Of a stretch of 64,000 nucleotides of DNA, positions 6,783-61,980 are shown piece after piece. Below the pieces are notes generated by a model. That model did not search any database, was not told the origin of the DNA, and worked only from the letters and a program-made list of their open reading frames with translations. Position 1 is the stretch's first letter, and every line of letters begins with the position of its first letter. The position numbers were made by a program, and so were the translations under genes. Source of the DNA: a virus; IMG/VR virus record IMGVR_UViG_3300046791_000499, positions 64,001 through 128,000 of that record; one strand, 5' to 3'.

Positions 6783-7035
6783 GGTGCCGGCGTGACCAGC
6801 GTGCGGGCTCGGACATTCCCACCGGAATACGGATCCGCGCGGGCCGGTCGGGCAGGTATGAGCACCCAAGACACAACCTGACGGGAATGCGCGGCGGCGC
6901 TGGCGGTTGACCGGTCTCCATCCCGGAGCACCAGCCCAAGGAGTCCGTCATGCGCAGCTAGTCACCAGCGGAGGTTCAACCCCAAAGCTCAGTACGCACC
7001 GACGGGCATGGTCGGCGAGCGCCTGAGCTTCGGGC

Positions 7036-7287
7036 GTGATGCGGATCCTCTACGAGCGACACCAGGACATCGGCCCCAACGAGGTGCGCGAATACAGCGT
7101 CGAGGAGATCGTGAACCTTGGCTGCAAGGACGGCCGCGACGTGGTGGCGACCGCCGAGATCCTCGCTCGCCTCGTCGACACGCTCACATCCCGCGGGCTG
7201 CTCACGGCTGACGACATCGACACCATCGCGTTCGGGTATTCGGGCTCGCCGGGGCGCGTCATCGGATTCGTGCCCGAGGATCGGTGA
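7036..7287 (+). CDS. Hypothetical protein
   Basis: 83-aa ORF with GC3-biased codons. Confidence 0.6.
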   Translation: MMRILYERHQDIGPNEVREYSVEEIVNLGCKDGRDVVATAEILARLVDTLTSRGLLTADDIDTIAFGYSGSPGRVIGFVPEDR

Positions 7288-7291
7288 CCGC

Positions 7292-8392
7292 ATGGCCGAG
7301 CCTCCGAGCAGCGTGTGGCGTTTTTCCGGCGGCTGGCTGCTGTGGCGCGTCGCCGACGAGATCGACAGACGACAAGCGACTATCGTCCCGGGCTCGCGGC
7401 CCTGCCGTGCGTGCGGAGGCCGTGGGACATTTGCGGAGTGGGGGCAACAGGAGGTTGGGTTCCTGTTGCCCGATGCCACGGGATTGCCCAGGAGCCTCGC
7501 CGACCGCGAGACGATCATCGGCCGAGAGATCCGGTGGGACCGGGTACTCGTGTGTGATTGCGTGTTTCCGTTTTCGTCGCCAGACATCCGCCCGGAATGC
7601 CCGACGCGTCCAGACACGGTCTCGCTCGCGTGGCTCGTGGGGTTCCTCGCCGAGCTGCCCAAGCCAGCATTCGATTGGCCGGCTCAGTGGCTCGTCGATC
7701 TCGACTGGCGCGAAGCCCAAGGCGATGACTCATGGCAGGCTGTTTGGTGGGCGGAGTTCATGGCCTGGACGCGCGGTGCGGCGATCGACGTCGACCGTCT
7801 CCAGCGTGCGCTCGATGATGCTTACCTCGCGGAGCGTTTGAAACTCGCTCACGCGAACCGGCAGCCGTCGATCGCCGCAGCCGTTCGAGCGGTCGTGGGC
7901 GTGACGAGTGTCTGCGTGCTCGAGAACCGGGTCAGCGGGGACCCGGCCGAACGCTCACTCGAAGTACTCGTTGAAGGCGGCGAGGACGAAGCCGTTGCCG
8001 CGGCGATCTACTCGTCGATGCATCGGGGCATTCCGCTCATCGGCACGGTCTCGGTGATCCTCGAAGGTTCCCCAGCGCTCGGGCTCTGGGATGACTCATG
8101 GGCGGAGGTCAGGTTTTCGCGGCCGTCGTTCTCGGTCGTGTCGCATGGTGGCCTGGACGTCACGTGGACCGCTCACAACGTGGCCGTGATCAAACCGATC
8201 GCGGCCCAGGGCTGGAACTACTGGGGCTACTCGCTGGCGATCGATGAAGAGGTTGTCACCGTCATGTCCACGCCTGGCATGGATGTGTGCGCGCTGCTGC
8301 GCGATGGCATCTACCAGAACCCGGTGCTGGCCAACCGGGTGACCGCGGTCGCGGACAGCAGGACCCTCACCCTGACCAGGGTCGACGGCTAG
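7292..8392 (+). CDS. Chimeric protein: Zn finger + TIGR02996-like motif + baseplate-J fragment + sheath-like domain
   Basis: CRACGGRG; 'DLDWREAQGD'; 'IAAAVRAVVGVTSVCVLEN...LEVLVEGGEDEAVAAAIY...VRFSRP' aligns with 14219-15427. Confidence 0.8.
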   Translation: MAEPPSSVWRFSGGWLLWRVADEIDRRQATIVPGSRPCRACGGRGTFAEWGQQEVGFLLPDATGLPRSLADRETIIGREIRWDRVLVCDCVFPFSSPDIRPECPTRPDTVSLAWLVGFLAELPKPAFDWPAQWLVDLDWREAQGDDSWQAVWWAEFMAWTRGAAIDVDRLQRALDDAYLAERLKLAHANRQPSIAAAVRAVVGVTSVCVLENRVSGDPAERSLEVLVEGGEDEAVAAAIYSSMHRGIPLIGTVSVILEGSPALGLWDDSWAEVRFSRPSFSVVSHGGLDVTWTAHNVAVIKPIAAQGWNYWGYSLAIDEEVVTVMSTPGMDVCALLRDGIYQNPVLANRVTAVADSRTLTLTRVDG

Positions 8393-8656
8393 TCCCGGAG
8401 CAGGTCGAGCAACCCGTTGAGCACCGCGCTCGCGATGTAGCTCAGCACCACCGCGATCGCACAGCAGGCCGCAGCGTCTCGCACCCGGTGACGGATGACC
8501 ATCTGCGGGGACATGCGCTCGGCCGGCATCGATCGAGCATGGGCCAGCCGTACTGCTGAGTCCGACGAAAAGATGTCGGCACTCCAGATAGGTGACCCGG
8601 GGCGGACGAATCCACCCCGGGTCTTCGGGTCGATCGGACGGTCACCCGCCCGCACC

Positions 8657-11138: not shown

Positions 11139-13163
11139 TTAGTAGACACCTTTGACGGTCAGAACGATGTCGTACCAATCGACGGTTGCCGAGAAGTCGA
11201 GCCGCACTCGGAACGTGCGCTGGGCTGCGGTCGGCAACGTGTACTTCTTCCGAAACGTGAACGGCATCATTCGGCCCGTCGTCCCAGCGCCGTCAATGTC
11301 CAGCGAGTTGAGCGGCTGAGAAGTAGCCACGGTGACCGACCCCGTGACGTCCTTGAGCAGAATGGTCATCGTCGTGGTGTCGGTTCGTCCGTTCCACATT
11401 CCGGTGACCTCGACAAGCACAACGCCGGTTACCTCCGGTGTGATCACGGCGTCCGCGACATCGCCAGTTGTGCCGACGTTGGAGCCGTCGGTTGTGGTGC
11501 CGTCGCCGTGCACCCAGCCCTTCGTAGAGCTGTGGATGCTCTCGTACGCTGCGCCGTTGTGCGTCCGCCACTTCACGCGGCTCGAGTTCAAGAACAGCGA
11601 GCCGGCCTGCGTCGTCGTTGGATCCGAATCCACAGGCACAACGACAAGCGGGGAACGCTTTGGTGCCGTTGCGTCCGTCTCTAGCTTCGCCGCATTGCCG
11701 TCCACGCTCAAGGCGTAGAGTGCGTTTGCATCTCCGAGTCCCAACGCGGCAATCCCAACGCCGCTCGAGGTAGCAGCAGCGGATGAAGTGCCCACGACAC
11801 CCACTGCACCAGTATTGACCGCGACGCCCTTGACTCCGTAGCTGGTCGCGTTGTTGAAGCCCGTCCCGAGAACGCCGTTGACGCCGGCGCCGGTGCCTAC
11901 ACCCACGAGACCGCCATTGCCTGTGAACGGCTCGCTGCAGGACATCGTGCCGATTACCGCGATGATGTCGCCAGCCGCGTTGCCGAGCGTCGACGATCCA
12001 TTCAGCGCCGTTGCCCCGGTGACGGTGAGGGCGGCAATCGTTGCCGCAGCCAAGCAGTCGAAAGTATCAGCCGTGCTCGTCCCGATCGTGCACGTGAAAG
12101 CGCCAGACCCAATGCAGAGCGAGACATCGTGGCCGGCAGTCAAATATCCATCGGTGGAAATGCCGACGGTGGAAATGACGTTGCCTCCGACGATGACGTT
12201 GTATCCGAATGATCCGCTGTATGTGACGTTGAGATAGGCGTCCGTGGAGATGTTCCCGGCCGCATGCACCACGGTGCTCGAGTAGACACCGTTGTAGCCA
12301 AGCACGCTGTTGGCGACCATCGCCTGATCGATGTTGACGTTCTCACCGAAGTGGACGTCGCCTCCGATGGTCTCGAGCACGATCCCGGGTCCACCGAAAT
12401 CGTTGTGGAAGGTGGCCGTGGTGTCGGTCGCCGAGTTGTTGGCCACGGACAACGCCGGCCCGCCGTTGGCCCCGATGAGAACCGAGGCAAGTTCCCCCAC
12501 GAGCGGAGCACCCGTGACGATGAGTGCAGCATCGGCCGGCACCGTGATGGTCACCAAGTCGGTGAAATTCGTTTGGCCTGAGACCGTCAGTTCCTCGGCG
12601 CCGATCGACTTGTGCGTTGGGATCTCGGGCACGAGCACCGTCGCAGCGGTGACGTTCGCGCCGTCGGTCTCGATTTTCCAGATGGCCACATAGCCCGCGG
12701 CAGGGACCGGCGCACCCGCTCCGTTGTTGACTTCCTGGTACGCGACCAGCCCCGCCTCGTTGAGATTGACGTAGGTGTCCTTGCTCGCCGTGAAGGCGTG
12801 CGGGCTGCCAATCGCGACCGTGAACTGCACGACCACGCCGCCGTCATCGTTGGCGTCGACCATCACCCACGACGCGGTGATCGAACTGCTCAATCCCGCG
12901 CCGGTGGTCCACGCGCCCGAGGTCGGGAAGACGAACGTACCGAACAGGCCAGCCGACGACGGGACCATCCGCGAGATGCCCATCGCCCGGATCCACCGCG
13001 CGAGATGCTGCCACTCGTAGTTGACCGTGCCCGACGGCAGAATCACGGAGCCGAGACCGGCAGCCTCCTCGGCAGGCACGGCGAAGGGTCCGCCAGATTC
13101 TCCCCACGTGGGCTCGTCGTAGGTGTCGTCCGGGTTGACTGGGATATCGGTGACGGCGGTCAT
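11139..13163 (-). CDS. Tail fibre / receptor-binding protein
   Basis: Last gene of the tail operon; G/A/T/V-rich beta repeats; C-terminal beta-sandwich. Confidence 0.8.
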   Translation of the reverse strand: MTAVTDIPVNPDDTYDEPTWGESGGPFAVPAEEAAGLGSVILPSGTVNYEWQHLARWIRAMGISRMVPSSAGLFGTFVFPTSGAWTTGAGLSSSITASWVMVDANDDGGVVVQFTVAIGSPHAFTASKDTYVNLNEAGLVAYQEVNNGAGAPVPAAGYVAIWKIETDGANVTAATVLVPEIPTHKSIGAEELTVSGQTNFTDLVTITVPADAALIVTGAPLVGELASVLIGANGGPALSVANNSATDTTATFHNDFGGPGIVLETIGGDVHFGENVNIDQAMVANSVLGYNGVYSSTVVHAAGNISTDAYLNVTYSGSFGYNVIVGGNVISTVGISTDGYLTAGHDVSLCIGSGAFTCTIGTSTADTFDCLAAATIAALTVTGATALNGSSTLGNAAGDIIAVIGTMSCSEPFTGNGGLVGVGTGAGVNGVLGTGFNNATSYGVKGVAVNTGAVGVVGTSSAAATSSGVGIAALGLGDANALYALSVDGNAAKLETDATAPKRSPLVVVPVDSDPTTTQAGSLFLNSSRVKWRTHNGAAYESIHSSTKGWVHGDGTTTDGSNVGTTGDVADAVITPEVTGVVLVEVTGMWNGRTDTTTMTILLKDVTGSVTVATSQPLNSLDIDGAGTTGRMMPFTFRKKYTLPTAAQRTFRVRLDFSATVDWYDIVLTVKGVY

Positions 13164-13172
13164 GGTGATCGG

Positions 13173-14216
13173 CTATGGGTCGGTGGCGAGCGTGAACGCG
13201 AGGACATCGGGTCCGTCGAGTGCGCTTTCGTCGAGGGTGAAAACATCGGGTGCAGCTTCGGGCGAGAACACCAGCACCATGCGAACGCCGTGCGGGCGCC
13301 CGCGGTAGAGCACGTCGAAGTAGGTTAGCGCCTCGTTCTCGGTCAGCTCGAAGAAGTAGACGACGTAGGTCAGCGGGTCGGGGCGCTCGAGCAACCACGT
13401 CTGCGCTCCGTTCACCAACCCAGCGGCCAAGGCTTTGGTGACCGATGGCTGGCGGTTCGTGCCCACAGCCCCGTCGATCGGAACGAGCACGTTCTGATAC
13501 CTCTCGTCGCTCCAACCGTCCGGGCGGAGGAAACCGAGGTCGCGCCCGAGAGCGTCGAGATGCACTCCGATCGCAGTCAGGACCGAGCCCACCCGCCAGC
13601 GAACCTCCCACGATGATGCGAGCAGCTCGCCCACCGCTGCCGTGAGCACGGCCTGCCACACCTGGATCTCTGGGTCCTTGACCAGCGGCGGGCGCATGGT
13701 CTGGAACCACCGCGTATTCGGATCCACGGGGTTCTGTGCGTAGATCGGATCGCCGATGATCTCGATCGTCGTGGCCAGCGGAACGGTCGTAGTCGACCCC
13801 CACGGCGACCACAGGATCCGCATGTGGTACGCGGTGATGCCATCCTGTTCGTTCGTTTCCCAGTCCGTGGGCATCGACCAGCGGATCGAAACCACGCCCG
13901 TCTCGGTCAGCGCTGCGGTCGCGTCGACCAGGTTGGGCAGCTTCACCCATGCGCTGCCGTTCCAATACTGGTACGCCAACCCGCTGGTCCCGAGGAACGC
14001 GGTCGAGATGTCGATCTCGATCTCGACGAAGGGGTAGGTCCAGCCGACCACGAAATAGTCGCCGGTGGAAGCATCGACGGCAGCAACCCCGAGTTCGACG
14101 TCACCCACCGCACCGCTCGCCGCCTCGGCCGTGAAGTCGGTCCAGATGTCGCCGTCCTCCTGGAACAGCCGAGCGCTCACTGGGTAGTTGGTGAAGTTGT
14201 CGTAGGCGTCTGTCAT
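13173..14216 (-). CDS. Baseplate wedge protein (DUF2612/gpI-like) with N-terminal extension
   Basis: 'TAIGVHLDALGRDLGFLRPDGWSDERY', 'RPHGVR'; follows the J gene. Confidence 0.75.
   Translation of the reverse strand: MTDAYDNFTNYPVSARLFQEDGDIWTDFTAEAASGAVGDVELGVAAVDASTGDYFVVGWTYPFVEIEIDISTAFLGTSGLAYQYWNGSAWVKLPNLVDATAALTETGVVSIRWSMPTDWETNEQDGITAYHMRILWSPWGSTTTVPLATTIEIIGDPIYAQNPVDPNTRWFQTMRPPLVKDPEIQVWQAVLTAAVGELLASSWEVRWRVGSVLTAIGVHLDALGRDLGFLRPDGWSDERYQNVLVPIDGAVGTNRQPSVTKALAAGLVNGAQTWLLERPDPLTYVVYFFELTENEALTYFDVLYRGRPHGVRMVLVFSPEAAPDVFTLDESALDGPDVLAFTLATDP
14056..14139. repeat. 84-bp dispersed repeat, copy 2 (donor, inside wedge gene)
   Basis: Matches 4449-4532. Confidence 0.95.
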
Positions 14217-14218
14217 TC

Positions 14219-15427
14219 CTACGCTCCGGTCACGGTGATATCGGTGAGTTCGTTGTCGATGGCGAACTGCTCACGAACCGCGGCCTCGAGTGTGCCCGTG
14301 TTCACCGGCGGGTCAACGATGTCGACCTCGACCACGATGTTGTCGATGCCGGGGATCCCCGCGTTGTTGTTCACGTAGGCGGCGATCTTGAAGCCGCTGG
14401 TGTTCTCGCCGGGAACGAGCGCCTCAACGTAGGTCACGACGGCTGCCCGGATCGCTGTCTCCCGAGCCGCAATGGCCTCGACGCTCATGTCGCCCGGATA
14501 GCCCTCGCCCTTGGTGATCGTGACCTCGATGTAGATCGCCACGAGTTCGGGGCGCGAGAACTTGATCGTGACCTGGCCGCCGACGTAGTCCGCGTCGATG
14601 ATCCCCACAATCGTGTTGCCGACCGTGTTGACGCCCTTCGCACGCGAGGCTTGGATCGCGGCGGCGACCGCATCGTCGTCGCCACCCACGACCAGGACTT
14701 CGACCCAATGCGTGAGGCCCCAGTAGGCGTCAGGGGTGTTGGTCGGGTTCTCGAGCAGCGAAGCCGAGGTCACCCCCGCGACCGCGCGCACGGCCGCGAT
14801 CATGTTGCTGAGCAGCGCGTCTCGCCACCGCTGCCGATACTCGGCGTCGGTCTCGTCGCTGCGGCCTGGGATCGCATCGGCGACGTTGGGCCCGACTGAA
14901 AGCCAGCCCGTGACCGGCGTCAGGATCGTCCAGTCGGACGCCGCGATCGCTGTCTTCGGTCCGGTCTCGAAGTACTCCCATGTCCCGTCGATCGTACCAC
15001 CGCCAGGGATCGTCACCGCGCCGACCAGCGCCCACGCGCCGGTCTCGTCAGCGAGCGCCACGGTCTGGCCAGCCGGCACGTTGACGTTGGGCCCCACCGC
15101 GGCGAACAGCGGCAGCACGACGGTGCTCCCCACGGCTGCCAGCTTCGGACCGATCCTCGGGGTCAGCAGCAGTTCGAGGCTTGAGCCCTCGGCGACGCCG
15201 TTGGTGCCGGGAGCCGCCGAAATGAACTTCGAGTTGTAGTTGCCCGCGCCATCATCCCACGCGTCCTTCATGACGTTAGCGAAGGTGCGCAGGAGGTCCG
15301 CTGCAGGGCCGTTCTCGACGTCGATGTTGGCGCTGGTCTCGGCCTTGTACTTGTTCTGCAGGTCGAGCAGGACCATGTCGTAGGTAGCCGGCAGCCAGCC
15401 GGTTGTCGTGTCATAGCCGAAGGACAT
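14219..15427 (-). CDS. Baseplate J/gp47-like protein
   Basis: 'AEGSSLE', 'GRSDETDAEYRQR', 'VEVLVVGGDDDAVAAAI', 'KFSRP'. Confidence 0.9.
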   Translation of the reverse strand: MSFGYDTTTGWLPATYDMVLLDLQNKYKAETSANIDVENGPAADLLRTFANVMKDAWDDGAGNYNSKFISAAPGTNGVAEGSSLELLLTPRIGPKLAAVGSTVVLPLFAAVGPNVNVPAGQTVALADETGAWALVGAVTIPGGGTIDGTWEYFETGPKTAIAASDWTILTPVTGWLSVGPNVADAIPGRSDETDAEYRQRWRDALLSNMIAAVRAVAGVTSASLLENPTNTPDAYWGLTHWVEVLVVGGDDDAVAAAIQASRAKGVNTVGNTIVGIIDADYVGGQVTIKFSRPELVAIYIEVTITKGEGYPGDMSVEAIAARETAIRAAVVTYVEALVPGENTSGFKIAAYVNNNAGIPGIDNIVVEVDIVDPPVNTGTLEAAVREQFAIDNELTDITVTGA

Positions 15428-15430
15428 GAT

Positions 15431-15802
15431 CTACGTTCCGATCTCGATTGATGTACCAGTGATCGTCCGAAAGGTCACTTTGATCGTGACCCTTGGACCG
15501 TTCGCCGCTTCGTTGTCCACCGTCACGATGGGCCCCGCAACGACCGACTCGACTCGCGGATGAGCCAGTACGACGTCACGCACGAGCGCACCGCGTTCCT
15601 CATCGCTCGTGTTGGGATCCAGGATCCGGTCGTAGTCCAAGCCCTCATCGGTGTTGAACACGTACTTGCCGAACGGCGTGGCCAGTTGCAGGTAGACCTC
15701 GACCCGCGTGGCGTTGTCGTCGTCCGTCGTGTAGGCCAGCGGGCGGACGAGTTCACCAGCGTTGGCGCCGGTCGTGTACATGTCGAGCGTCATGCCGGCC
15801 AT
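15431..15802 (-). CDS. Baseplate wedge / sheath initiator (gp25-like)
   Basis: 'LQLATPFGKYVFNTDEGLDY', 'HPRVESV'; position before J. Confidence 0.75.
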   Translation of the reverse strand: MAGMTLDMYTTGANAGELVRPLAYTTDDDNATRVEVYLQLATPFGKYVFNTDEGLDYDRILDPNTSDEERGALVRDVVLAHPRVESVVAGPIVTVDNEAANGPRVTIKVTFRTITGTSIEIGT

Positions 15803-16038
15803 GGGTCATCTCCGATATCGGCCAAACACTGTGGTCGGCGATGGTGCGGGTGGCTGAAATACCGGTCCAACGCTGGCTTCGTGAGCGCAACAGGCGGGCC
15901 AAGATTTGGAAGCACCTCGCCGTCGATGCCCATCAAGAGTTCATGTGCGTGCCCCTCGTGCGTGACCCAAGCACACGAAAACCGGCCGGTGGTTCCGCGG
16001 CCAGCCAAATAGGCCATGAGTTGCGCTTCGTCCATCAA
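15790..16038 (-). CDS. Small hypothetical protein within the baseplate operon
   Basis: 82-aa ORF overlapping both neighbours. Confidence 0.5.
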   Translation of the reverse strand: MMDEAQLMAYLAGRGTTGRFSCAWVTHEGHAHELLMGIDGEVLPNLGPPVALTKPALDRYFSHPHHRRPQCLADIGDDPWPA

Positions 16039-17078
16039 AACACTCCCGGAATCGTCTGTAGTTCGTCGAGTTCGAGACGAGTCTCGCCGCCGCTATTCGT
16101 GTCCACCGTGGTCGTAGCGACCTCGATCCGGTAGTTCGCCGTGCGGGTGGGCGTGATCATCGTGACTGCTCGACCGGGCGCGGCGCCGGGCTGAGCCCAT
16201 GTACGGACCGCCATCTTGAACGCATCGACGGCCTCGGGCTCGCCGAAGATGTTGCCCGCTGCTGACGAGAGTTCGATCGGCGGGAAGCCGGTGAGCACGC
16301 TCGTCGAGTCGAGGAACAGCAACTCGCCGTTCTGCACCGACCATCGAAGCTGCAGCGCGTCCATGATCTGCTGGACCTGTGGCCGCGCCGGACCCGAGGC
16401 GTTGTAGCCACCGAGCAGTTTGAGATCGGCGGGCGGCAGGTTCTTGGCGATCATCGCAGCTTGAAGCTGTTGGAGAAGCCGAGCCCGATCCGCGGTCAGC
16501 CCACACGCGGCGATCAGATCCATGATGACGTCGACGACGTTGGTGCCGGGCTTGTAGCTCTTGCCCACGAAGGGCACGACGCCCGCGCCGGCAGATTGGA
16601 TCGCCTCGCCGGCTCCGAGCAGGTGAGCCCCATCCTGTACCTCGATCGTCAGGACTTGGTCCCGGCCATCGGGGGCGTAGCGCATCTTGCTCGACTGCCC
16701 GATGAACCCCACCGACAAGGCCGCGAGCATGTTGGGCGCTTCGCTGTCCGTGAATCCCCACGACAGTTCGACCGAGCCGAGTCCGTAGATCTCGCTGATC
16801 ATTTCGATCGTCGCCCCCGACTTCCCAAGCTCGAACAGTTGCGCTCGCTCGGTCGCAGTCCAGTCGGTTCGCGAGCGCACCACCCCGATGATCAAAGCCG
16901 CGGTGAGAGGCGCGGGGTTGTAGAACTGGATCTGCGCGGTGTTGGGCTCAGATCGCAGCGACCTCGTGACGGTGAAGCGGATGCGCGGCTGGACGCCAAG
17001 CGGGTCGGGGTTCAACGAATCGAAGTACCCCGCGGCGTTCGTGATCCGCAACCGTGCAACGCAGATCGGCGAGCCCAT
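16035..17078 (-). CDS. Baseplate hub protein
   Basis: 'IRFTVTRSLRSEPNTAQIQFYN', 'WSVQNGEL'. Confidence 0.8.
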   Translation of the reverse strand: MGSPICVARLRITNAAGYFDSLNPDPLGVQPRIRFTVTRSLRSEPNTAQIQFYNPAPLTAALIIGVVRSRTDWTATERAQLFELGKSGATIEMISEIYGLGSVELSWGFTDSEAPNMLAALSVGFIGQSSKMRYAPDGRDQVLTIEVQDGAHLLGAGEAIQSAGAGVVPFVGKSYKPGTNVVDVIMDLIAACGLTADRARLLQQLQAAMIAKNLPPADLKLLGGYNASGPARPQVQQIMDALQLRWSVQNGELLFLDSTSVLTGFPPIELSSAAGNIFGEPEAVDAFKMAVRTWAQPGAAPGRAVTMITPTRTANYRIEVATTTVDTNSGGETRLELDELQTIPGVF

Positions 17079-17081
17079 GGG

Positions 17082-17432
17082 TCAAGTCCCCACGTCCGCT
17101 GCGGGGATGTAGACGAGCCGCACGCCAGATTCGCGCTTCAAGTCGTCGCGCCCGGGGTCAAGCTGGTTGCGGGTCGTGTCCCACACGCGGAGCTTTCCCG
17201 CGCCGTTGCCTGGGTACGCGCTGGTGTTGAGCGACTCCAGAACGTCCTCGCCGTGCCGAAGCACGAGACCAGCTCGGAGCAGGACCCGGTCGGCGTCGTA
17301 GATCGAGAGCGTCCAGAACTGCTCACCCTCGACCCAGAAAACCTCGAGCACGTAGAAGCGCCCGTCGAGTCGGGTCCGAACACGCGAACCGCCGCGGTCT
17401 CCGATGGCAAGATTGACGAACTGCTTGGCCAT
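17082..17432 (-). CDS. Baseplate plug-like protein
   Basis: 'RLDGRFYVLEVFW..EQFWTLSIYD...G..L..G.D.L'; position. Confidence 0.75.
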   Translation of the reverse strand: MAKQFVNLAIGDRGGSRVRTRLDGRFYVLEVFWVEGEQFWTLSIYDADRVLLRAGLVLRHGEDVLESLNTSAYPGNGAGKLRVWDTTRNQLDPGRDDLKRESGVRLVYIPAADVGT

Positions 17433-17435
17433 GGG

Positions 17436-18023
17436 TCACCCGGGGATCGTCGCGGCGAGGTCGGCGGGTACGGTTTCGGTGCTCTGCTGTCCGGCGTCAA
17501 CGATGCCATCAACGCTGTCCGTGATACCTGGGTCCGTTGCCGAGGGCACGGTCGTGAACGAGGTAGAGAAGCGCGAGACCTCCTTGAGCGTGATCACGCC
17601 GCGCCACGCCTGGACCGTGAAGCCGCCGTTCAATTCGACGGTCTTGCCATCTTCAATGTTGGAGATGACCCACACGCGAGCCCCCGTGGGTGCACGCCAG
17701 AGCTTCTTGCCGTCAAAGAAGGTGACCTCGGTGCCGAGTTCTTGCAGTAGATACAGTTGCTTGAGGATGACGTCGACGTGGCCTGGCGCGGGCTCCCACA
17801 GCCCGACGATCCCCGAGCCCGCGATCGGCTCCGCGTCGCTCAGCACGACCGTGACCTGGATCTGATACGGCACGCGCTGCCGATGGTTGGCGATCGGGGC
17901 TCCGCGCTCGAGCGCCGTGTTCGTCATGTCGAAGTCGCGAGGCGCTCGAATGTCCTCGATCACGTCGATGTGAACGACACCAATGCGTCCAGGGAGCCCG
18001 GTGCTGGCGTAAGCAAACGGCAT
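17436..18023 (-). CDS. Dit-like tube initiator
   Basis: 'TNTALERGAPIANH...P..I.V.V.LSD', 'ITLKEV'. Confidence 0.75.
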   Translation of the reverse strand: MPFAYASTGLPGRIGVVHIDVIEDIRAPRDFDMTNTALERGAPIANHRQRVPYQIQVTVVLSDAEPIAGSGIVGLWEPAPGHVDVILKQLYLLQELGTEVTFFDGKKLWRAPTGARVWVISNIEDGKTVELNGGFTVQAWRGVITLKEVSRFSTSFTTVPSATDPGITDSVDGIVDAGQQSTETVPADLAATIPG

Positions 18024-18026
18024 GGC

Positions 18027-18815
18027 CTACTCGCCCTTCGCTTTCAGAGTCTCAGGCGAATTCAGACCGATCGCGGTGTTCCATGCGGTCTGCGCTGTGG
18101 TGGCGCCCGTAAAGGCTGGTCCGGCGCCAGCGGCCACGAGAGCGTTGAGCATCGATGTCATCGCCGAACTCAACGCAGCCCAGTTGGTGAGCGACAGCGC
18201 AGCCGGACCGCCTATGGTCACCGATTGCCCCGTGGGAACATCGATCGCAACCGAGCCCGAGGCGCTCAGCGTTATGGTGGCCGAGACCACCCCAGCCTTG
18301 GTGAGCGTCAGGACCCCGTCCGGTCCCACTCGAAGCGCATCCCCGACCGGGCCTTGGAGCACCCAGTCTTCGTCTTCGTCGGTGACCGAGGCCGGTGGTT
18401 GCGGCGTCGGCGGGGTAATTCGGAAGGGCAGCACCACCGCGTCGGAGAGATCATGGTGCCGCTGGTCGAGCGAGTGCGCCTGGCCGACGAGTTTGGTCTG
18501 CCTCCATCGCTCGGAGTTGCGATCCGAGCAGACGGCGAGGCACTCGTCGCCGGCCGTCATCGGCCAACGCATGGAGAATCCTCCACCGCCTGGGAAGGCG
18601 ACTGGGGCGCTCGGAGCCTGTCCATCGCCTTTCTCTTCGCCGCCGCGCCGCGAGCCGATGCCAGCATCAAAGTCGACGTCCATCTCGCCGAGGGCCTGTC
18701 GCGCGATCGCTGCGATCTTGCCGAGCACGACGGTCCGCGCGTTGCGGATCTTCTCGTCGATGACGACGGCGATCGCCTCGATCAGCACGCCCGCGTCACC
18801 AGTCTTGGCCGTCAT
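18027..18815 (-). CDS. Baseplate spike (Gp138-like)
   Basis: 'PVAFPGGGGFSMRWPMTAGDECLAVCSDRN', 'RHHDLSDAVVLP'. Confidence 0.85.
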   Translation of the reverse strand: MTAKTGDAGVLIEAIAVVIDEKIRNARTVVLGKIAAIARQALGEMDVDFDAGIGSRRGGEEKGDGQAPSAPVAFPGGGGFSMRWPMTAGDECLAVCSDRNSERWRQTKLVGQAHSLDQRHHDLSDAVVLPFRITPPTPQPPASVTDEDEDWVLQGPVGDALRVGPDGVLTLTKAGVVSATITLSASGSVAIDVPTGQSVTIGGPAALSLTNWAALSSAMTSMLNALVAAGAGPAFTGATTAQTAWNTAIGLNSPETLKAKGE

Positions 18816-21616
18816 TGGACCCCCGGGATCGTCCGCCCACCGCCGTGCGCAGCGAGCAGCCTCTTGCCCTGCAGCTCGAACATCGCAGCCACGAGCGCGG
18901 GCAAGTCTTCCAACTTGGCGAGCATCGCGTCCCGAGCCTGATTCGCGGCATCCTGCATCGCATCGTTCTCCTCGACCGAACCCGCACCGTGGATGGTGAT
19001 CGTGAGGTTCTCGATCAGTTTGATGATCGGGGCGATTGTGATCAAGAGCGTTTGCGGTGGCGGCCTGCCTTCGAGCACCGAGCCTGGACCGCGAAGCCCG
19101 AGCATGTCGAGGATGTTCTTGGACGCCCCGTCGAAGATCCGGCCGGCCTGGCGAAAGCGCTCCTCGAGTTCCTTGGCCCGCGTGCGACCGGCCTCGCGTG
19201 CGAGCGCGACGGCTTGATCTGGATCGGTGCCGCCAGCGATCAGGCGTTCGAGTTCACGCTGAGCGAACTCCTCGGCCTGTTTCTCGGCCGCCTTTTTCAC
19301 GTCCTCCTCGAATTGGAAGAACGTGTCGCCCTTCCCCTTCTTTCCCTTCTTCCCCTTGGCTGCGCCCTTGACCTTGCCGATCTGGCCAACGGCTGCCTCG
19401 GCCGCGGCGTCGGCTGAACCAGTCGAGGCAAAGGTGGCGGTCGCGGTCTCGAACGCTTTCTGGCGCGTCGCTCGATTGCCCTCCAACACGGCCGCTCGCG
19501 CAGCTCGGCCAGCAGCGTCAGCATCCCCGCCGCGCTTTTTGGCCTCGGCTCGGGCTGTCTTCTCAGCTGAGTCCGCTCGGACCCGCTCCGCCTTCGCCAC
19601 AGCGTCGTATACCTGGCGGCCCTCGGCGGTGAACAACTTGGAGGCTCCCTGCTCGGCCTGCTCGGCTGTGCCCTTCGAGAGCTGATTGAGCCGGAAATTG
19701 GCCTCATTCACGTCAGTCTCGGCGAGAAGACCCGCGCCCAGCCCTCCAACCGCACCCTGCACACGAGCCTTTGTCGCCTTCTCGCGTTCCTGTTTCTGCT
19801 TGTCGTACGCCTGGTTGCGCTCAAACCTCGCTCGCTCCATCGCGTCGATGTTGGCGTTGGTCTGCCGGATCGATGCTTCGAGCGCCTTGATCTCCCGCTC
19901 GCTCTCCGAGATCGAATCGTTCAAACCCGTGATGTCGGCTACGGCACTTGCGGCCATGTTGCCGAGCGCGAGACCAACAGCACCAGCCGCCACGACCAGG
20001 CCAGCCGGCCCCATCATCGCCGTGGACATGCCGACGATCAGGAGCGTGGCGTTGATGAGAGCGTTCTCCATCCCGCCCGAGATCTCGATGAAGCTCTGGA
20101 TCGCATCGATGATCATGCCGACCGCCTCGGCCCCACCAACCACCGCATCGTAGAAGGCGTCTAGCGCCCCGCCGACATCCTCTGGCGAGACCGATCCGAT
20201 GAACTCGCGGACCGCTTCGATGGCCGTGACGAGTGCATCCGACAGCACTTGCGCAAAGCCGCCGCTCTCGGAGAACCGGCCATTCAGATCTGTGATCAGG
20301 CCCTTGAAGGCATCGAGCGCGCCGGCCTGTGAGACCTGGTCGAAGAACTGCGCGATGCCGTCCTTCAAGTTCGAGATCATGCCGGCAGCGGTCTCGGTTT
20401 GGTTCGCCATCGAGCCGGCGAACTCGGTCTCGCCAAGGCCCTTCAAATAGGCGCTGATCTCGTCAGAGCTTTTGCCGACCGTGGTGGTCAGGCCCTTGAA
20501 CGTGAAGGCGACCTTGTCTCCTTGGGTCGACGCCTTGATCCCGAATTCTTTGAGCCGCTCGAACTCGCCGGTACTGGCGTCGGCGACAGCCTCGACGAAC
20601 TCGATGATCGGCTTGCCCTGCGCCGCGGCGATGTTACCGAACGCGGTGAGCGATTCGGTCGACGCATCCAGGCCGATGTTTTTGAGCCGGATATAGGCGG
20701 TGGTGACCTCCTCAAGCTCGAATGGTGTGGTCTTGGCGAACTGCTGGATCAGACCGAACGCCGCGCTCGCACCCTCGGCCGAGCCCTCGACGGTCTTGAG
20801 TCGCGACCGGAGCGACTCGAAGTTGACTCCGGTCGAGAGCACGGCGGTGCCCAGGGCCGCGACCCCGATCGCACCAATGGAGGCGACGCGACCAACCGTT
20901 GCCGCGATCCCGCCGATGTCGCTCGCGGTGCTGCGCAGGATCTCTCGGCGACGATCCCGAGTCGATGCCTCATCGTTCAGATCGTCGAGCCGACGACGCT
21001 TGCGGTCCAGGAACAGCCGCGCGTCATCGTCGATCATCTTGTGATGCGACCGCTGACGATCCGAGGCGACCTGTTCGGAGTGCTTCCGGTTGTCCTCCGT
21101 TGCCCGCTCTCGGCTGACCCGTAGCTTGTCGAGCGCTCGCCCTTCCGAGGCCGCGATCCTCTGCGACGCTTTCTCCTCTGCCGCCGCCGCTCGCTCGGAT
21201 GCTCGGATGCGTGCGGCGATCTGCTTGTCCGACGCTGCGATAATCCGCTCGGACGCGCGCTCGTGGGCGGCGGCCTGCTTCGCGGCGAGAGAGTCCTCCT
21301 TGTCGGCGGCCTTCTCAGCGCTCGAGACCGCTTTCAAGAAGTCGGTCTCAGCCCGAACCGCAGCCTTCGCCCGGGTCGCCGCGGCTTTCTCGGCTGCCTT
21401 CGCAGCGCGCTCGGTCTCCTTGGCGAGCTGCCGTTCGGCGACCGCAGCCTTGGCCGCCGTGCGCTCTGACTCACCGAGTGAGCGGTCGAGATCGTCGGTT
21501 GCTCCGGCCGCTCGCTTCGATGTCCTGCTGAGCTTCTCCGCGTCGGCGTCGGCCTCCTTGAAGCCCTCGCCGTTGTACTTGGTGACGATGGAGATGATGA
21601 AGCGGCGCAGTTCCAT
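18812..21616 (-). CDS. Tape measure protein
   Basis: 934 aa, Ala-rich helical; 'FAKTTPFELEEV', 'GEFERLKEFGI'. Confidence 0.93.
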   Translation of the reverse strand: MELRRFIISIVTKYNGEGFKEADADAEKLSRTSKRAAGATDDLDRSLGESERTAAKAAVAERQLAKETERAAKAAEKAAATRAKAAVRAETDFLKAVSSAEKAADKEDSLAAKQAAAHERASERIIAASDKQIAARIRASERAAAAEEKASQRIAASEGRALDKLRVSRERATEDNRKHSEQVASDRQRSHHKMIDDDARLFLDRKRRRLDDLNDEASTRDRRREILRSTASDIGGIAATVGRVASIGAIGVAALGTAVLSTGVNFESLRSRLKTVEGSAEGASAAFGLIQQFAKTTPFELEEVTTAYIRLKNIGLDASTESLTAFGNIAAAQGKPIIEFVEAVADASTGEFERLKEFGIKASTQGDKVAFTFKGLTTTVGKSSDEISAYLKGLGETEFAGSMANQTETAAGMISNLKDGIAQFFDQVSQAGALDAFKGLITDLNGRFSESGGFAQVLSDALVTAIEAVREFIGSVSPEDVGGALDAFYDAVVGGAEAVGMIIDAIQSFIEISGGMENALINATLLIVGMSTAMMGPAGLVVAAGAVGLALGNMAASAVADITGLNDSISESEREIKALEASIRQTNANIDAMERARFERNQAYDKQKQEREKATKARVQGAVGGLGAGLLAETDVNEANFRLNQLSKGTAEQAEQGASKLFTAEGRQVYDAVAKAERVRADSAEKTARAEAKKRGGDADAAGRAARAAVLEGNRATRQKAFETATATFASTGSADAAAEAAVGQIGKVKGAAKGKKGKKGKGDTFFQFEEDVKKAAEKQAEEFAQRELERLIAGGTDPDQAVALAREAGRTRAKELEERFRQAGRIFDGASKNILDMLGLRGPGSVLEGRPPPQTLLITIAPIIKLIENLTITIHGAGSVEENDAMQDAANQARDAMLAKLEDLPALVAAMFELQGKRLLAAHGGGRTIPGVQ

Positions 21617-21628
21617 GGCTCGTCTCCA

Positions 21629-22351
21629 TCACTTCTTCGCCGTCGACGTTGCATCCATCGCCCGGCGCTCGACCTCGGCAGCGTGAGCCGCGATATCGAC
21701 CTGGTCCATGAGCGCGACCGGGGTCCAGTCGGTGAGCACTTCATGGCTGCTGGCGACGTAGCCCATCTTGGCGAGGTTGGCCGCCCACTGCACCGCGGTC
21801 GCTACCCCGGGAACCGGCACGCCGTAGTCTTTGGACTTGGGGCTGCGCAGCGAGTACGGCTTGCGGATCCACAGCGGTTGGAAGGTCTGCTCGATCTGAA
21901 ACGCCAAGACCTGCCAGCGGCCGAACGGGCCAAGCCCTGCCTGCGCCCACGTCGTCCAATCCTCGACCAGCACGTCGTCGACCTTGAGCCGGTCAAACAC
22001 CATGCGCTCGAACACCTGCGCAAGCCAACGGCCTTCCAGGTTCGCACTCACGGCGCAGGCGGTCAGCATTTCGACCGTGCGGCGGACACCATCGGCTGCG
22101 ATGTCGAGCCCTTGCTCGCGGTCGCGAACGGCGTCACCGATCGTGCCCGTGAACCCGTGGTCGGCCAGCACACCGCTCCACAGCGAGCCGACGACGTTGC
22201 CTCGGGCAGCGAGCAGCATGACGAGCGGCTCACCGAACCGATCGATCAACTCGGGCTCGAGTTCAAACGCGGTGATCGGGTCGAGAACCTGTAGCCGGCA
22301 GCGTCGGCCGGTCACAGTGAGACGGCCCCACGGCTGCCGGTAGTAGGTCAC
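21629..22351 (-). CDS. Tail assembly chaperone-like protein 2
   Basis: Lies between chaperone 1 and the tape measure gene; GTGA overlap. Confidence 0.6.
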   Translation of the reverse strand: MTYYRQPWGRLTVTGRRCRLQVLDPITAFELEPELIDRFGEPLVMLLAARGNVVGSLWSGVLADHGFTGTIGDAVRDREQGLDIAADGVRRTVEMLTACAVSANLEGRWLAQVFERMVFDRLKVDDVLVEDWTTWAQAGLGPFGRWQVLAFQIEQTFQPLWIRKPYSLRSPKSKDYGVPVPGVATAVQWAANLAKMGYVASSHEVLTDWTPVALMDQVDIAAHAAEVERRAMDATSTAKK

Positions 22352-22965
22352 CCGGATGCAGCCTCGCTTGGGGGCACGGCAGTCGGGGGATCGACAGGCT
22401 TGGAGGTCGCGGCGACTGGGCGCGCGAAGCTGATCTCGTCGGCGTAGTTGAACCGCAACGACTCCGCGAGCAGGCGCCACTTGGTGGCCGGCGACGAGCC
22501 CACGAGCACCGCGCCGAGCACCTTGTAGTCGGTGATCCTGATCTCGCCCCTACCGGTCTGGACCAGGGTCTTGTTGAACACGGCCAACTGCATGAGGCGA
22601 TGCAGGTCCTTGGGCTCGAGCCGGGCGAGCAGGACCGGGAACGCCTCGCCGAGAAGGCTGCCGGCCACGTCGGGGAGAACCTCGAGCAGCCGAGCCCACG
22701 CCCTGGCGATGCGACCGTCGGACGTGTCGAGGTCCCCGAGGTTGGCCAGGTCGAAGTCAGCCCCGGAGCCCGTGGTCTCGGCCAGGAACAGCGCGACCTC
22801 TTTGGCGAGCGCGTCGACGACGATGCCGACGCCTACGGCTGCCGCGGGACCGAGCACCCGAAGCAAGATGCACTCGATCTCGAACTGCTCTTCGGGACCC
22901 GTACGCGTGATGATCCACGTACGGTCGTCGAAGCTGAGCGTCTTCTTGGGGTCGATGCGATCCAT
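22348..22965 (-). CDS. Tail assembly chaperone
   Basis: Position after the tube gene; 'LLAESLRFNYAD' end motif. Confidence 0.65.
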   Translation of the reverse strand: MDRIDPKKTLSFDDRTWIITRTGPEEQFEIECILLRVLGPAAAVGVGIVVDALAKEVALFLAETTGSGADFDLANLGDLDTSDGRIARAWARLLEVLPDVAGSLLGEAFPVLLARLEPKDLHRLMQLAVFNKTLVQTGRGEIRITDYKVLGAVLVGSSPATKWRLLAESLRFNYADEISFARPVAATSKPVDPPTAVPPSEAASG

Positions 22966-22977
22966 GGATTACCTCGA

Positions 22978-23451
22978 TCACGGCATCAACGAGATGATCT
23001 CTTCTTGGGTCAACTGCGGCGGGTTCACCCACTTGCCGACCTGAGCGATCTGGAACACCCCGATCAGCGGCCAACTGACGACCTCGACGGTATCGGCGTT
23101 GAAGTTTCGCGTCGGCTGGGCCTCGATCGAGACCGAGCCGGAGACGAACTTCGTGGTCTCGTAGGTCAGCGAGACCCCGAGGATCTTTCCGAACTGCCGG
23201 ATCGCCTTGACCGCCGCGAAGATGAACGAGTCGTCCTCGCTCATCGGCATGACGTTGACCGTGAACCGATAGGCGTTGGACCCGTTGATGATGTGCGCCG
23301 CCGTATTGTGAAGGCCGCCAATGAGCGCCGACTCTGGAGACATCTTCTCCAGGATGGCGATCGTCCCGACATCGGGCAGCGCCGTGATGCGCTTGCCGCT
23401 GATGTTCAGGAACAGATTCGATTGTTGGATGATGACGGTCTCGTTGGACAT
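22978..23451 (-). CDS. Tail tube protein
   Basis: 157 aa, beta-rich, directly after the sheath gene. Confidence 0.75.
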   Translation of the reverse strand: MSNETVIIQQSNLFLNISGKRITALPDVGTIAILEKMSPESALIGGLHNTAAHIINGSNAYRFTVNVMPMSEDDSFIFAAVKAIRQFGKILGVSLTYETTKFVSGSVSIEAQPTRNFNADTVEVVSWPLIGVFQIAQVGKWVNPPQLTQEEIISLMP

Positions 23452-23463
23452 GGCTCAGACCTC

Positions 23464-24840
23464 TCAGACGAGCGCGAACTCGGCTTCCACTCGCAGCGCC
23501 GCGAGCTTCGGGGTGATGGTGGCGGAGGCGAGGATGCGCCCGGTCGTCTTGAAGTCGCCGATCGAAAGTTCGGACGGCGGAAGCGTGGACAGATCGAGCG
23601 GCTCGTAGGTCACGGTGAAGTCGTCGCGGATGACACCAGCGGTGACCAGCGGGATCATGTCCTGGCTGATCTTGTCGCAGACGCTCTGCAGCCCGGCCTT
23701 GTCGAGATTGACGCCAGCGTTCGACTGCAAGATCAAGTCGACGGTCTGGCGGATCGTGTACCACCACCAATCCTCGGCGTGGACTTGGTAAATGAAATTG
23801 CCGCTGGAGACGTAGCCGCCGAGCGTGCGCAGGTCATCGGCCGGGCTGTAGAACCGCTCGGTGTATGACGTGAAGCGCTGGCGCATCGTCTGCGTCTGGC
23901 TGAGCGACCGAGCAGCGGTGATCGTCGTTTCGTCGCTGCCCTCCGTGACCAGGAAGTGCCAGGTCCGCGAGCCCGGGAACGCCCCGCCGACACGGCCAAC
24001 CCACGCGGCCGCCATGTAGTCGGTCGCCGTCGGGTGGCTCAGCAGGGCGGCACGCTTGTACTCGCCGTTGAACCAGTCCACCGCGATGTTGGTGGTGTCG
24101 CTGCCGTCGTAGACCCCGACGGTCGCGGTCTCGCCGATCATGACGTTGCGGCGGTTCACGACGTCGGCTCCCGCCCATCGGCGGCCTTCGTCGAGTTCGA
24201 CGTCGAGCGCACCTGGCATGAGAACGCCCCAGAAATTCGAGAGCGGGTAGGCGGCGTCGAGATCCTCGAACGCCCCGACGTTGGCCACCGTCTCCGTCAC
24301 GGTCGGAGCCGTACCGCCTGGTGCTGCCGACGTCGGCGTGAAGCCAACCCCTGGCACGTCGGCCGTGAGACTCAGCGTGTCGGTGTCTACGGAAGCAGCG
24401 GTGATCAGCGCGCCGTAGATGCCACCGTTGAAGGCGGCGACCAACCCGTCCTTGATCTGCGTCGTGGTCGAGCCGCTTGCGGCGAACGTCGCGGCGAGCG
24501 TCCCGTTGATGCTGACGGTGTGGTTGCCGTCGGTCGTGGAGATGATGTCCACGGTCCAGACGTTGGCGACCGGGTTCTCGCGCTTGATCAGGACGATCCG
24601 AGAAACGGCGGTGGCGGTCGGCTCCTGGCTGAATAGTTGGACCGCAGCGTTGAAGGCCGCGTCACCGGTGTCCCAGCCATCCTCCTCCATGAGCGCGGTC
24701 GACGAGTAGTCCGTCGTCTTCGCGGTGATGCCGGCAGGAACGGCGGGTGCCACAATCGCGAAGATCCGTGGGGTGTCCGGCGGTTCGGGTGGAACCTGAT
24801 TGAGCTGCGAATTGATTGCGATCCAGTCGATTGCGGGCAT
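23464..24840 (-). CDS. Tail sheath protein (DUF3383-like)
   Basis: 'AAVQLFSQEPT', 'PGSRTWHF', 'SGNFIYQVHAEDW'. Confidence 0.88.
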   Translation of the reverse strand: MPAIDWIAINSQLNQVPPEPPDTPRIFAIVAPAVPAGITAKTTDYSSTALMEEDGWDTGDAAFNAAVQLFSQEPTATAVSRIVLIKRENPVANVWTVDIISTTDGNHTVSINGTLAATFAASGSTTTQIKDGLVAAFNGGIYGALITAASVDTDTLSLTADVPGVGFTPTSAAPGGTAPTVTETVANVGAFEDLDAAYPLSNFWGVLMPGALDVELDEGRRWAGADVVNRRNVMIGETATVGVYDGSDTTNIAVDWFNGEYKRAALLSHPTATDYMAAAWVGRVGGAFPGSRTWHFLVTEGSDETTITAARSLSQTQTMRQRFTSYTERFYSPADDLRTLGGYVSSGNFIYQVHAEDWWWYTIRQTVDLILQSNAGVNLDKAGLQSVCDKISQDMIPLVTAGVIRDDFTVTYEPLDLSTLPPSELSIGDFKTTGRILASATITPKLAALRVEAEFALV

Positions 24841-24852
24841 GTCGGTCTCCTA

Positions 24853-25692
24853 CTAGGCGACGTTGAGGGCGTGCCCGATCCGGCGGGCGGCGGGGACTTG
24901 GTATGCAGCGGTGGCGTAGCCCAAGAGCGCGAAGTCGAGGGTGCCTTGCGTCTCGCTGCGATCGGCGAGTGTGGTGTTCTGAGCGAGAAGAATTCCGGCC
25001 AGGTTCCAACCGGCGGCCTGCAGCTTCGGCTTGAGCACGCGGTGCATGGCTTTGCGGGCGCGGGTCATGAGGTCGAACCCGGTGGCGAAACCTCGGACCT
25101 CGACGCCTCGGAAGGTCACTCGGCAGACCATGCGCGACCACTCGACCTCGAGTTCGGGGAAGCGCTCGACCAGCGGCGTGATCTCGACGAGATCGGCGTC
25201 GCTCGGAGCGAGAGCGAACAGGGGTTCGTCGGTCGAGCCGGTGACGATGATGCTGGTCGGATCATCGCCATCGATCGCGGCTGTGATCCCAGCGGGCAAC
25301 CCGGCGTCGATGATGGCGAACAGGGCAGCCGCGCTGATGTCGGGTGTCTCCTGTGGGTCCAGGCCCTGGTCGGGCGAGTCGTACGAGAACGTGAGCGGGG
25401 AATCGAAGTCGAACCCGACGTACAAGAGCACGGCGAAGGTCCCGGGCCCGTCCACGAGGATCGTGATCTGCTGCTTCACGATCGATGGGATCGTGCGGAC
25501 CTCTGGCTGACTCAGCGGCACGAGCGAGGTTGCGACCTGGATCAGCGCGGCCGGGAGCGCCACGTCGGGGGCTCCGTCGTCGCGCTTCTCGGGGAAGCAC
25601 ACGCGCTCACCGGGGATGCCGGTAGCCGCAACGACCCAGTCATGGATCGCGTTCTCGACCAGCTCGATGGCGATCGGGGCAGTCGCGGTCAT
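24853..25692 (-). CDS. Neck / tail terminator protein
   Basis: 'ENAIHDWVVAATG'; position before the sheath. Confidence 0.7.
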   Translation of the reverse strand: MTATAPIAIELVENAIHDWVVAATGIPGERVCFPEKRDDGAPDVALPAALIQVATSLVPLSQPEVRTIPSIVKQQITILVDGPGTFAVLLYVGFDFDSPLTFSYDSPDQGLDPQETPDISAAALFAIIDAGLPAGITAAIDGDDPTSIIVTGSTDEPLFALAPSDADLVEITPLVERFPELEVEWSRMVCRVTFRGVEVRGFATGFDLMTRARKAMHRVLKPKLQAAGWNLAGILLAQNTTLADRSETQGTLDFALLGYATAAYQVPAARRIGHALNVA

Positions 25693-37748: not shown

Positions 37749-37836
37749 CAATACGGCTCCCACCAGAGATGGCCCCACAGCCACGCGATGTCACTGCTGA
37801 CGTGCACGGGCTCTCGCTGGAGTAGCTGGTACGGCG

Positions 37837-49494: not shown

Positions 49495-49529
49495 GGGAAT
49501 CCGCCCGCGCATCGGACGGTCACCGCCGC

Positions 49530-61938: not shown

Positions 61939-61980
61939 GCCGGCTGGAATCGGGCCCGCGGCACGGCGGTCTTGGTCAGC

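Follow-up and report, generated by a model that had tools for sequence, protein, structure and literature searches.

Why does a phage that encodes a complete baseplate wedge protein J carry a piece of the same protein in a second gene, outside its tail operon? The question is raised by gene P0001 of the IMG/VR virus record IMGVR_UViG_3300046791_000499. We analyzed a window of 64,000 nucleotides, corresponding to bases 64001 to 128000 of this 143,093-bp record, which has direct terminal repeats and is rated 100% complete. The genome belongs to a lytic-looking 143-kb myovirus; no tyrosine integrase was found in it. The window has a GC content of approximately 65%, and its contractile-tail operon occupies positions 11139 to 25692 on the minus strand. 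P0001 is a real gene. A coding-type codon-position GC pattern extends across the whole open reading frame (ORF), with a GC content at third codon positions (GC3) of 0.79, and the ATG at position 7292 agrees with the N termini of its homologues. As stated in a preliminary description made from the sequence alone, the gene lies outside the tail operon and on the opposite strand, approximately 2.7 kb past the last gene of the operon. We regard its product as a nonstructural accessory protein that is composed of three modules, a conserved N-terminal domain (N-domain), a J-derived module, and a C-terminal module X, and that belongs to variable accessory islands.

When P0001 was compared with the translated window by tblastn, only J was matched: amino acids (aa) 193 to 280 of P0001 were 40% identical to aa 208 to 295 of J, encoded by nucleotides 14543 to 14806, with an E value of 1e-9. 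Alignment by hhalign with a profile of seven J sequences covered aa 188 to 295 (probability, 98.4; E value, 5e-15), and a hidden Markov model (HMM) of the J central region scored P0001 at an E value of 3e-20. The tblastn and hhalign values are well beyond chance, and the J-like segment named in the preliminary description is thereby upheld. Positions that are invariant in the J family (GV, EN, GG, G, and FSRP) are retained in the module, and the frame is open. The nucleotide identity between the module and J is 54% over 84 aligned codons, which indicates that the copy is old. It had been proposed that the DNA diverged while the protein motifs were kept, and that this reflects selection. The divergence and the retained motifs were borne out, whereas selection could not be assessed from the ratio of nonsynonymous to synonymous substitutions because the distance between the module and J is too large.

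The same relationship was seen at the level of structure. The AlphaFold2 (AF2) model built from a curated alignment showed a predicted local distance difference test (pLDDT) score above 90 across aa 110 to 280, with a long helix (aa 167 to 199) followed by a beta-beta-alpha-beta-beta arrangement. Foldseek comparison with the PDB returned the baseplate wedge chains of Pam3, Bas63, Pa193, PhiTE, E217, and XM1 as the best matches, with an E value of 1.3e-4 for 7yfz_A. In an independent structural scan with VIA, Pam3 gp22 reached a Z score of 12.1, and PhiTE, Bas63, XM1, and E217 scored between 8.7 and 9.7. Weaker matches, with Z scores of 5 to 6.5, were obtained for diffocin, Mu, phi812, pyocin R2, and the contractile injection system of Streptomyces coelicolor, and the lower rows contained generic ferredoxin-like domains, such as the C-terminal domain of MamM (MamM-CTD) and the C-domains of adenylation enzymes. 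The segment folds like J, in line with the expectation of the preliminary description. It is confirmed that aa 188 to 295 of P0001 are a true homologue of the J central domain, at both the sequence and the fold level.

The homology is restricted to this domain. The hhalign alignment stops at aa 295, leaving the J C-terminal domain absent from P0001, and aa 1 to 180 align with the zinc-ribbon family only, with the J N-terminal core-bundle region absent. Searches of Pfam and PHROGs with the whole protein returned no J match (PF04865 or phrog_6) at E values of up to 1. The gene is located approximately 6 kb from J on the opposite strand, rather than behind the gp25/W-like gene within the baseplate operon. 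BLAST against P0030 and a MAFFT alignment had suggested that the whole C-terminal half corresponds to the C-terminal half of J. This assignment was rejected: hhalign ends at aa 295, and the remaining tail gave a shuffle z score of −0.15 and an hhalign P value of 0.57 against the J C terminus. P0001 falls outside the J family and ought not to carry the annotation of baseplate J. Among the J proteins found, that of its own phage is the closest to its J module (52 bits, versus 39.5 bits or less for the others). A tree of J modules, including those of the carriers and of true J proteins, was unresolved and did not distinguish a single capture from repeated captures.

What, then, is the rest of the protein? 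Four cysteines of the N-domain, C38 and C41 within CRACGGRG and the C88/C90 pair, are invariant or nearly so across 24 to 26 homologues. The complete set of invariant or nearly invariant positions is L17, A21, E23, D25, T30, C38, C41, C88, C90, R106, P107, L112, V116, D138, W152, W153, W159, and G162. The family pattern, to which P0001 conforms, consists of a helix, CxxC, a variable insert, CxC, (R)PxT-hydrophobic-x-L, and a helical region with WP..W..D...G...W..WW..F..W. The four cysteines substantiate that part of the earlier Zn-finger label which concerns conserved residues, and on their account the N-domain is predicted to bind zinc. Modeled alone by AF2 (pLDDT, 77), the N-domain gave a helical bundle of high confidence (pLDDT above 90 for aa 1 to 35 and 110 to 185) and an ill-defined ribbon with low scores. 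No anti-sigma or DNA-binding fold was present among its structural matches, the best 50 of which were considered for anti-sigma chains. Pfam, PHROGs, and NCBIfam contained nothing that matched P0001 or its modules. NCBIfam searched at E values of up to 1 also gave no match for the paralogue P0036, described below, or for neighboring ORFs, and the ESM Atlas returned rows at chance level only (similarity, 0.75).

To delimit the family, 1.84 billion representatives were searched exhaustively with phmmer. Of the 35 proteins found, approximately 30 share aa 13 to 180 only, and the C-terminal half is matched by five true J proteins. The family comprises approximately 30 clusters at 50% identity, with phmmer E values from 1e-40 to 1e-4. 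All of its members come from metagenome assemblies, where they are located on phage-like contigs, and no relatives were found in INPHARED phages, IMG/VR, or GTDB species genomes. When the C-terminal half alone was used in a word-indexed search, P0001 itself was the only match, and a profile search added nothing further. The N-domain defines a small, previously undescribed phage family with swappable C termini.

Within this family, the J module recurs in P0002 (HMM E value, 4e-16) and P0025 (2e-7) and marginally in P0008 (0.01). P0002 is made up of the N-domain, module X, and the J module, that is, the same modules as P0001 in reversed order. P0004 carries module X only, and P0003 and P0005 have a different C terminus with a GTGRTT motif and no J module. 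The J module of P0002 scored 46.6 bits against the J protein of the phage studied here and 26.9 bits against the J protein of its own phage; a foreign target therefore fits it better than a self target. Comparison of the other members' C termini with all of the loci retrieved, as well as with this genome, gave no further matches to virion proteins. Several members (P0003, P0004, P0005, and P0029) end in an acidic tail, ...DDEPVIP, which is absent from P0001 and which we take to resemble the C-terminal protein-docking tail of the bacterial single-stranded DNA-binding protein (SSB).

The positions of the homologues vary. P0002, P0003, and P0004 are encoded in related phages (loci L003, L006, and L008) on the same strand as the tail operon and within it, in a variable island that separates the Dit-like gene from the plug gene. 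The C termini of these island proteins differ, their flanks are near-identical, and a different small ORF precedes each of them. Because the Dit-like gene is immediately next to the plug gene in the phage studied here, the island represents an insertion in its relatives. Accessory genes of this phage recur in the island-bearing phages at 52 to 59% identity. Elsewhere, P0008 comes after an SSB gene and borders directly on the plug gene, and P0025 lies among genes for a helix-turn-helix protein, RuvC, and a methyltransferase. After each of P0010, P0015, and P0018 comes a protein of approximately 625 aa and then a convergent gene for an extracytoplasmic function (ECF)-type sigma factor. Most homologues have a small nonhomologous ORF directly upstream, often with a 4-nucleotide overlap. 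These contexts form the pattern of a mobile accessory gene, not that of a fixed structural gene.

Several observations were made at the same loci. The proteins of approximately 625 aa (L013:11335-13224, L014:9162-11036, and L016:9222-11114) share a domain with the wedge protein encoded right after J: their aa 259 to 405 align with its aa 19 to 167 at 33% identity (E value, 2e-20). This domain also resembles the sheath insertion region in L003. Here, too, virion-type domains occur in genes that lie outside the tail block. In close relatives, an N6/N4 DNA methyltransferase gene occupies differing positions of the baseplate block (L003:16785-17651, L006:8378-9304, and L008:9135-10256). Several small reverse-strand ORFs accompany the inserted methyltransferases, and insertions are unusually frequent in these tail operons.

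The C-terminal module of P0001 had been described as similar to the insertion domain of the tail sheath, at approximately positions 8225 to 8389. This proposal did not withstand comparison. BLASTP of P0001 against the sheath gave a best E value of 4.5, and an HMM of the sheath insert together with its true look-alike did not match P0001. Smith-Waterman shuffling of module X against the insert (aa 90 to 170) resulted in a z score of 0.55 (P = 0.27). Alignment by hhalign did reproduce the match made by eye, but with a P value of 0.028 and a probability of 1.8%. Sheath homology of aa 281 to 366 was rejected as unsupported by BLASTP, two HMMs, hhalign, and shuffling. What the two segments share is a pattern recognized by eye, Y/H-x-hydrophobic-x-I-D/N ... 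DG-I/L ... TLTLT. In the shuffling analysis, module X was related to aa 233 to 318 of P0004 (z score, 6.5) and to aa 229 to 312 of P0002 (z score, 4.7), and none of 2,000 shuffles reached the observed score. By these comparisons, the C terminus of P0001 appears to be a family-specific module and not a sheath-like one. AF2 did not fold module X (pLDDT, approximately 30), and for this reason it may still resemble the sheath insert at the level of fold.

A true look-alike of the sheath insertion domain (phrog_205) is carried by a different gene of the same phage. In P0036, a divergent paralogue of P0001, aa 278 to 353 (nucleotides 49957 to 50184) resemble the insert with 34% identity over 76 aa, a pairwise E value of 2e-5, and a z score of 11; the E value against all ORFs of the genome was 3.8e-4. 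Two ORFs adjacent to P0036 showed weaker similarity to the N-domain, and their C termini had no virion-protein match among the ORFs of the genome. The phage encodes a minimum of one clear paralogue, with the two adjacent ORFs as weaker candidates. With respect to the carrier family envisaged in the preliminary description, P0001 with its J module and P0036 with its sheath-insert-like module can be retained, the two ORFs next to P0036 are weak candidates, and ORFs 8657 and 34779 drop out, as hhalign detected no N-domain similarity in them. A further accessory ORF, at genome positions 37691 to 38656 on the plus strand and approximately 26 kb before the window, contains a stretch of 28 residues (aa 158 to 185) that matches the tip at the C terminus of the tape measure protein (aa 897 to 924) with 71% identity. 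It does not belong to the zinc-ribbon family.

P0001 is preceded by an ORF of 83 aa (GC3, 0.87) that had no family match in the library searches. As its stop codon lies only 4 nucleotides before the ATG of P0001, the two genes are probably cotranscribed. Upstream of this two-gene unit, 130 to 190 nucleotides before the 83-aa ORF, are two promoter-like motifs of the form GGAAT-N16-18-GGT; no sigma-70-like promoter was found there. The motif is enriched in the window, with 15 occurrences observed versus 3.7 expected, and no shuffle reached 15. Other sites include 6795 to 6819 (−), 49496 to 49520 (+), and 61946 to 61970 (+). The motif is often located a few bases ahead of a start codon, which is consistent with the regulon of a phage sigma factor. 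A Sigma70_r2 gene is present at genome positions 133839 to 134024 (−), approximately 62 kb from P0001. Small ORFs upstream of the island homologues (L003:9717-10004 and L006:3037-3552) have counterparts of 52 to 59% identity in this phage, at 49530 to 49823 (+) and 61972 to 62499 (+), one of which lies tail-to-tail with P0036. On the other side of P0001, a candidate ORF of 37 aa that includes a hydrophobic segment (MVIRHRVRDAAACCAIAVVLSYIASAVLNGLLDLLRD) and was recognized only by reading the sequence occupies positions 8391 to 8504 (−) and converges on P0001 with overlapping stop codons. The coordinates of all of the main features are collected in Table 1.

Table 1. Positions of P0001, its modules, and related or neighboring features in the window
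Feature	Positions	Strand	Description
P0001	7292-8392	+	366 aa; modular accessory protein
N-domain of P0001 (aa 1-180)	7292-7831	+	Helix, predicted four-Cys zinc ribbon with variable insert, Trp-rich helical bundle
C38/C41	7403-7414	+	Within CRACGGRG
C88/C90	7553-7561	+	CxC pair
J-derived module (aa 188-295)	7853-8176	+	End of long helix, then beta-beta-alpha-beta-beta domain ending in FSRP
Module X (aa 281-366)	8132-8389	+	Family specific; earlier called sheath-like
Promoter-like motifs	6824-6848, 6884-6907	+	GGAAT-N16-18-GGT
Small upstream ORF	7036-7287	+	83 aa
Wedge protein encoded right after J	13173-14216	−	Next wedge protein
Baseplate wedge protein J	14219-15427	−	phrog_6, 6e-24; also matches annotated baseplate J of cultured phages
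gp25/W-like protein	15431-15805	−	
Hub	16035-17078	−	
Pam3-gp18-like plug	17082-17435	−	
Dit-like tube initiator	17436-18023	−	
Tape measure	18812-21616	−	
Tube	22978-23451	−	
Tail sheath	23464-24840	−	phrog_205, 2.6e-25; insertion domain at approximately aa 90-170
P0036	49825-51015	−	Divergent paralogue; N-domain hhalign probability 94.5, E value 7.7e-8
ORF adjacent to P0036	50895-51587	−	Weaker N-domain similarity (hhalign P value, 1e-4)
ORF adjacent to P0036	51580-52863	−	Weaker N-domain similarity (hhalign P value, 2.6e-3)

What could a J central domain do outside of J? The copied region corresponds to the middle of J-type proteins, for example to residues 108 to 240 of Pam3 gp22, and includes Cys187 of the reported interunit disulfide. 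The docking sites of Pam3 gp22 bind gp22 of adjacent trifurcation units (PMC9942802), BW2-i and BW2-o of Mu shake hands between wedges (PMC11915804), and in diffocin the core bundle, together with the trifurcation unit, precedes the dimerization domains (PMC10996793). In all three, domains of the J-type protein extend from the trifurcation unit to neighboring wedges (PMC9942802, PMC11915804, and PMC10996793). The copied region would belong to the part of J that builds the trifurcation unit and the wedge-wedge contacts, and the J-derived module would therefore dock P0001 on J-containing wedge intermediates. The conserved N-domain may supply an activity common to the family, and the small upstream ORF could encode a partner. 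The outcome would be either interference with baseplate assembly or control of it. Tail-assembly inhibition encoded by a phage together with a partner gene has a precedent in Tab/anti-Tab (PMC10884400). We tentatively suggest, with somewhat less than even confidence, that P0001 is a putative conflict-type or regulatory accessory factor that docks on J-containing wedge intermediates and is aimed at baseplate assembly.

One alternative is that modules J and X are tolerated passengers, acquired via illegitimate recombination, and that the real job of the protein resides in the N-domain, for example in ECF-sigma-linked regulation unrelated to the baseplate. The family C termini are indeed highly variable, most of them matching nothing in the available loci, and an ECF-type sigma factor is encoded two genes away from three of the members. 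The J central domain is a compact ferredoxin-like fold that is also present in MamM-CTD and in the C-domains of adenylation enzymes, and the unresolved tree permits repeated capture. However, the J module recurs in P0001, P0002, and P0025 despite N-domains of approximately 33% identity, all invariant core residues of J are kept in an open frame at 40% identity, a module from another of the phage's tail proteins is present in the second paralogue, and the N-domain has no structural match to an anti-sigma or DNA-binding fold. We consider this explanation rather unlikely, if a serious one. P0001 could also serve its own virion, either as a minor component or as a baseplate assembly factor that joins or chaperones the wedge via the J module. 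This role, which we judge to be unlikely, has to contend with P0003 and P0005, which lack the J module at the same position of near-identical operons, and with other members that are found among early, regulatory, or sigma genes. The gene for P0001 itself lies beyond the tail operon and on the opposite strand, behind a promoter motif common to many accessory genes, and the island of the relatives is an insertion, given the adjacent Dit-like and plug genes here. On its side are the location of homologues on the same strand inside the baseplate block (L003, L006, and L008), a homologue in L010 that abuts the plug gene, and the preference of the P0001 module for its own J. The CxxCxGxG motif of P0001, presumably reminiscent of the DnaJ zinc finger, might be added, but no profile match supports it.

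Two further explanations take the protein to be an antidefense decoy or the gene to be a selfish element. As a decoy, it would display exposed tail-protein domains, J here and the sheath insert in the paralogue, to soak up a host immune sensor that recognizes these virion proteins. In its favor, the phage has two paralogues with modules that each resemble a different one of its tail proteins, and conflict genes typically form such multigene families with diversified C termini. The sheath's insertion domain is outward-facing and variable (PMC11915804) and is therefore unlikely to drive coassembly, a point that we count in favor of such a decoy. Since the J module of P0002 is unlike the J protein of its own phage, which argues against self-mimicry, we regard an antidefense decoy as quite improbable. 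Still less credence, to the point of being hardly credible, is given to a selfish mobile gene of the homing-endonuclease type that inserts in tail operons and carries fragments of target genes. Its presence and position do vary among related phages, where it sits between otherwise adjacent tail genes beside insertions of methyltransferase genes and small reverse-strand ORFs. Neither Pfam, PHROGs, and NCBIfam nor the fold search revealed a nuclease family or motif, however, no histidine is conserved, and the J module does not derive from flanking genes and is ancient, with 54% nucleotide identity.

Several points weigh against docking on wedge intermediates itself. The strongest argument against a J-directed function of the family comes from the homologues at the same position: because P0003 and P0005 lack the J module there, such a role cannot be shared by the family. 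The copied domain could be merely a stable fold and not the contact-making part of J, and a poison subunit might harm the phage that makes it, as the module is 40% identical to its own J. The N-domain has no recognizable fold relative, its best matches being generic helical bundles in the PDB (Z score, 4.8) and an E value of 1.1 in BFVD. Finally, Tab is not reported to be similar to its target (PMC10884400), and the analogy concerns the outcome only. A broader interpretation can be drawn that would join the zinc-ribbon multigene family, with its conserved domain as an effector or adaptor and its interchangeable copies of tail domains (J and sheath insert), and the unrelated tape-measure-tip ORF into a system of homotypic mimicry. 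It would target the tail assembly of the phage itself or of a competitor, or act as a decoy for host sensors, with the upstream ORFs as partners; we offer it as speculation that is doubtful in this full form.

If the J module steers P0001 to wedge intermediates, an accessory protein would be aimed at one step of virion assembly in a way that can be read from sequence, and its target would be predictable from the borrowed domain. With its swappable targeting modules, the family would then allow interference between phages, or the sensing of tail proteins, to be tested directly. Should docking fail, a new phage-specific zinc-ribbon/Trp-rich domain family has nonetheless been defined. It should also be noted that the J central domain can exist outside of J proteins, which matters for annotation.

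Compared with known systems, P0001 shares parts with several of them. With J/gp6/TssF-type proteins (PF04865 and phrog_6; Pam3 gp22, Mu gp47, and diffocin CD1371) it has in common the central alpha/beta domain and the preceding helix, whereas the J N-terminal half, with the core-bundle helix and the wing region, and the J C-terminal domain are missing. Unlike J proteins, it is encoded outside the baseplate operon, in a phage that already has a full J gene. The N-domain contains one exact CxxCxGxG (C38-RAC-GGRG), as in the DnaJ zinc finger and Anti-TRAP, and a second cysteine pair that completes a four-Cys site. In contrast to DnaJ, the motif is single and not repeated, the second knuckle is CxC, and there is no Pfam match. 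Zinc-binding anti-sigma proteins are characterized by HxxxCxxC and by an anti-sigma fold encoded beside a sigma factor gene and cotranscribed with it; no histidine precedes the CxxC of P0001, and the ECF-type sigma gene near three homologues is convergent. The resemblance to the TIGR02996 repeat-companion domain is limited to D-W-x-E-x-x-GD, seen by eye. Tab/anti-Tab of Pseudomonas prophages (PMC10884400) is similar in being an accessory gene among structural genes with a small adjacent gene. Tab targets a tail protein, namely, the C terminus of the tape measure, and acts from a prophage (PMC10884400), whereas a tail target is only proposed for P0001 and no tyrosine integrase was detected in its phage. 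The tape measure is also represented in this phage by the accessory ORF with a 28-aa copy of its tip. The borrowing of virion domains by mosaic phage accessory proteins is known; what is new here is the combination of domains, in a previously undescribed phage family.

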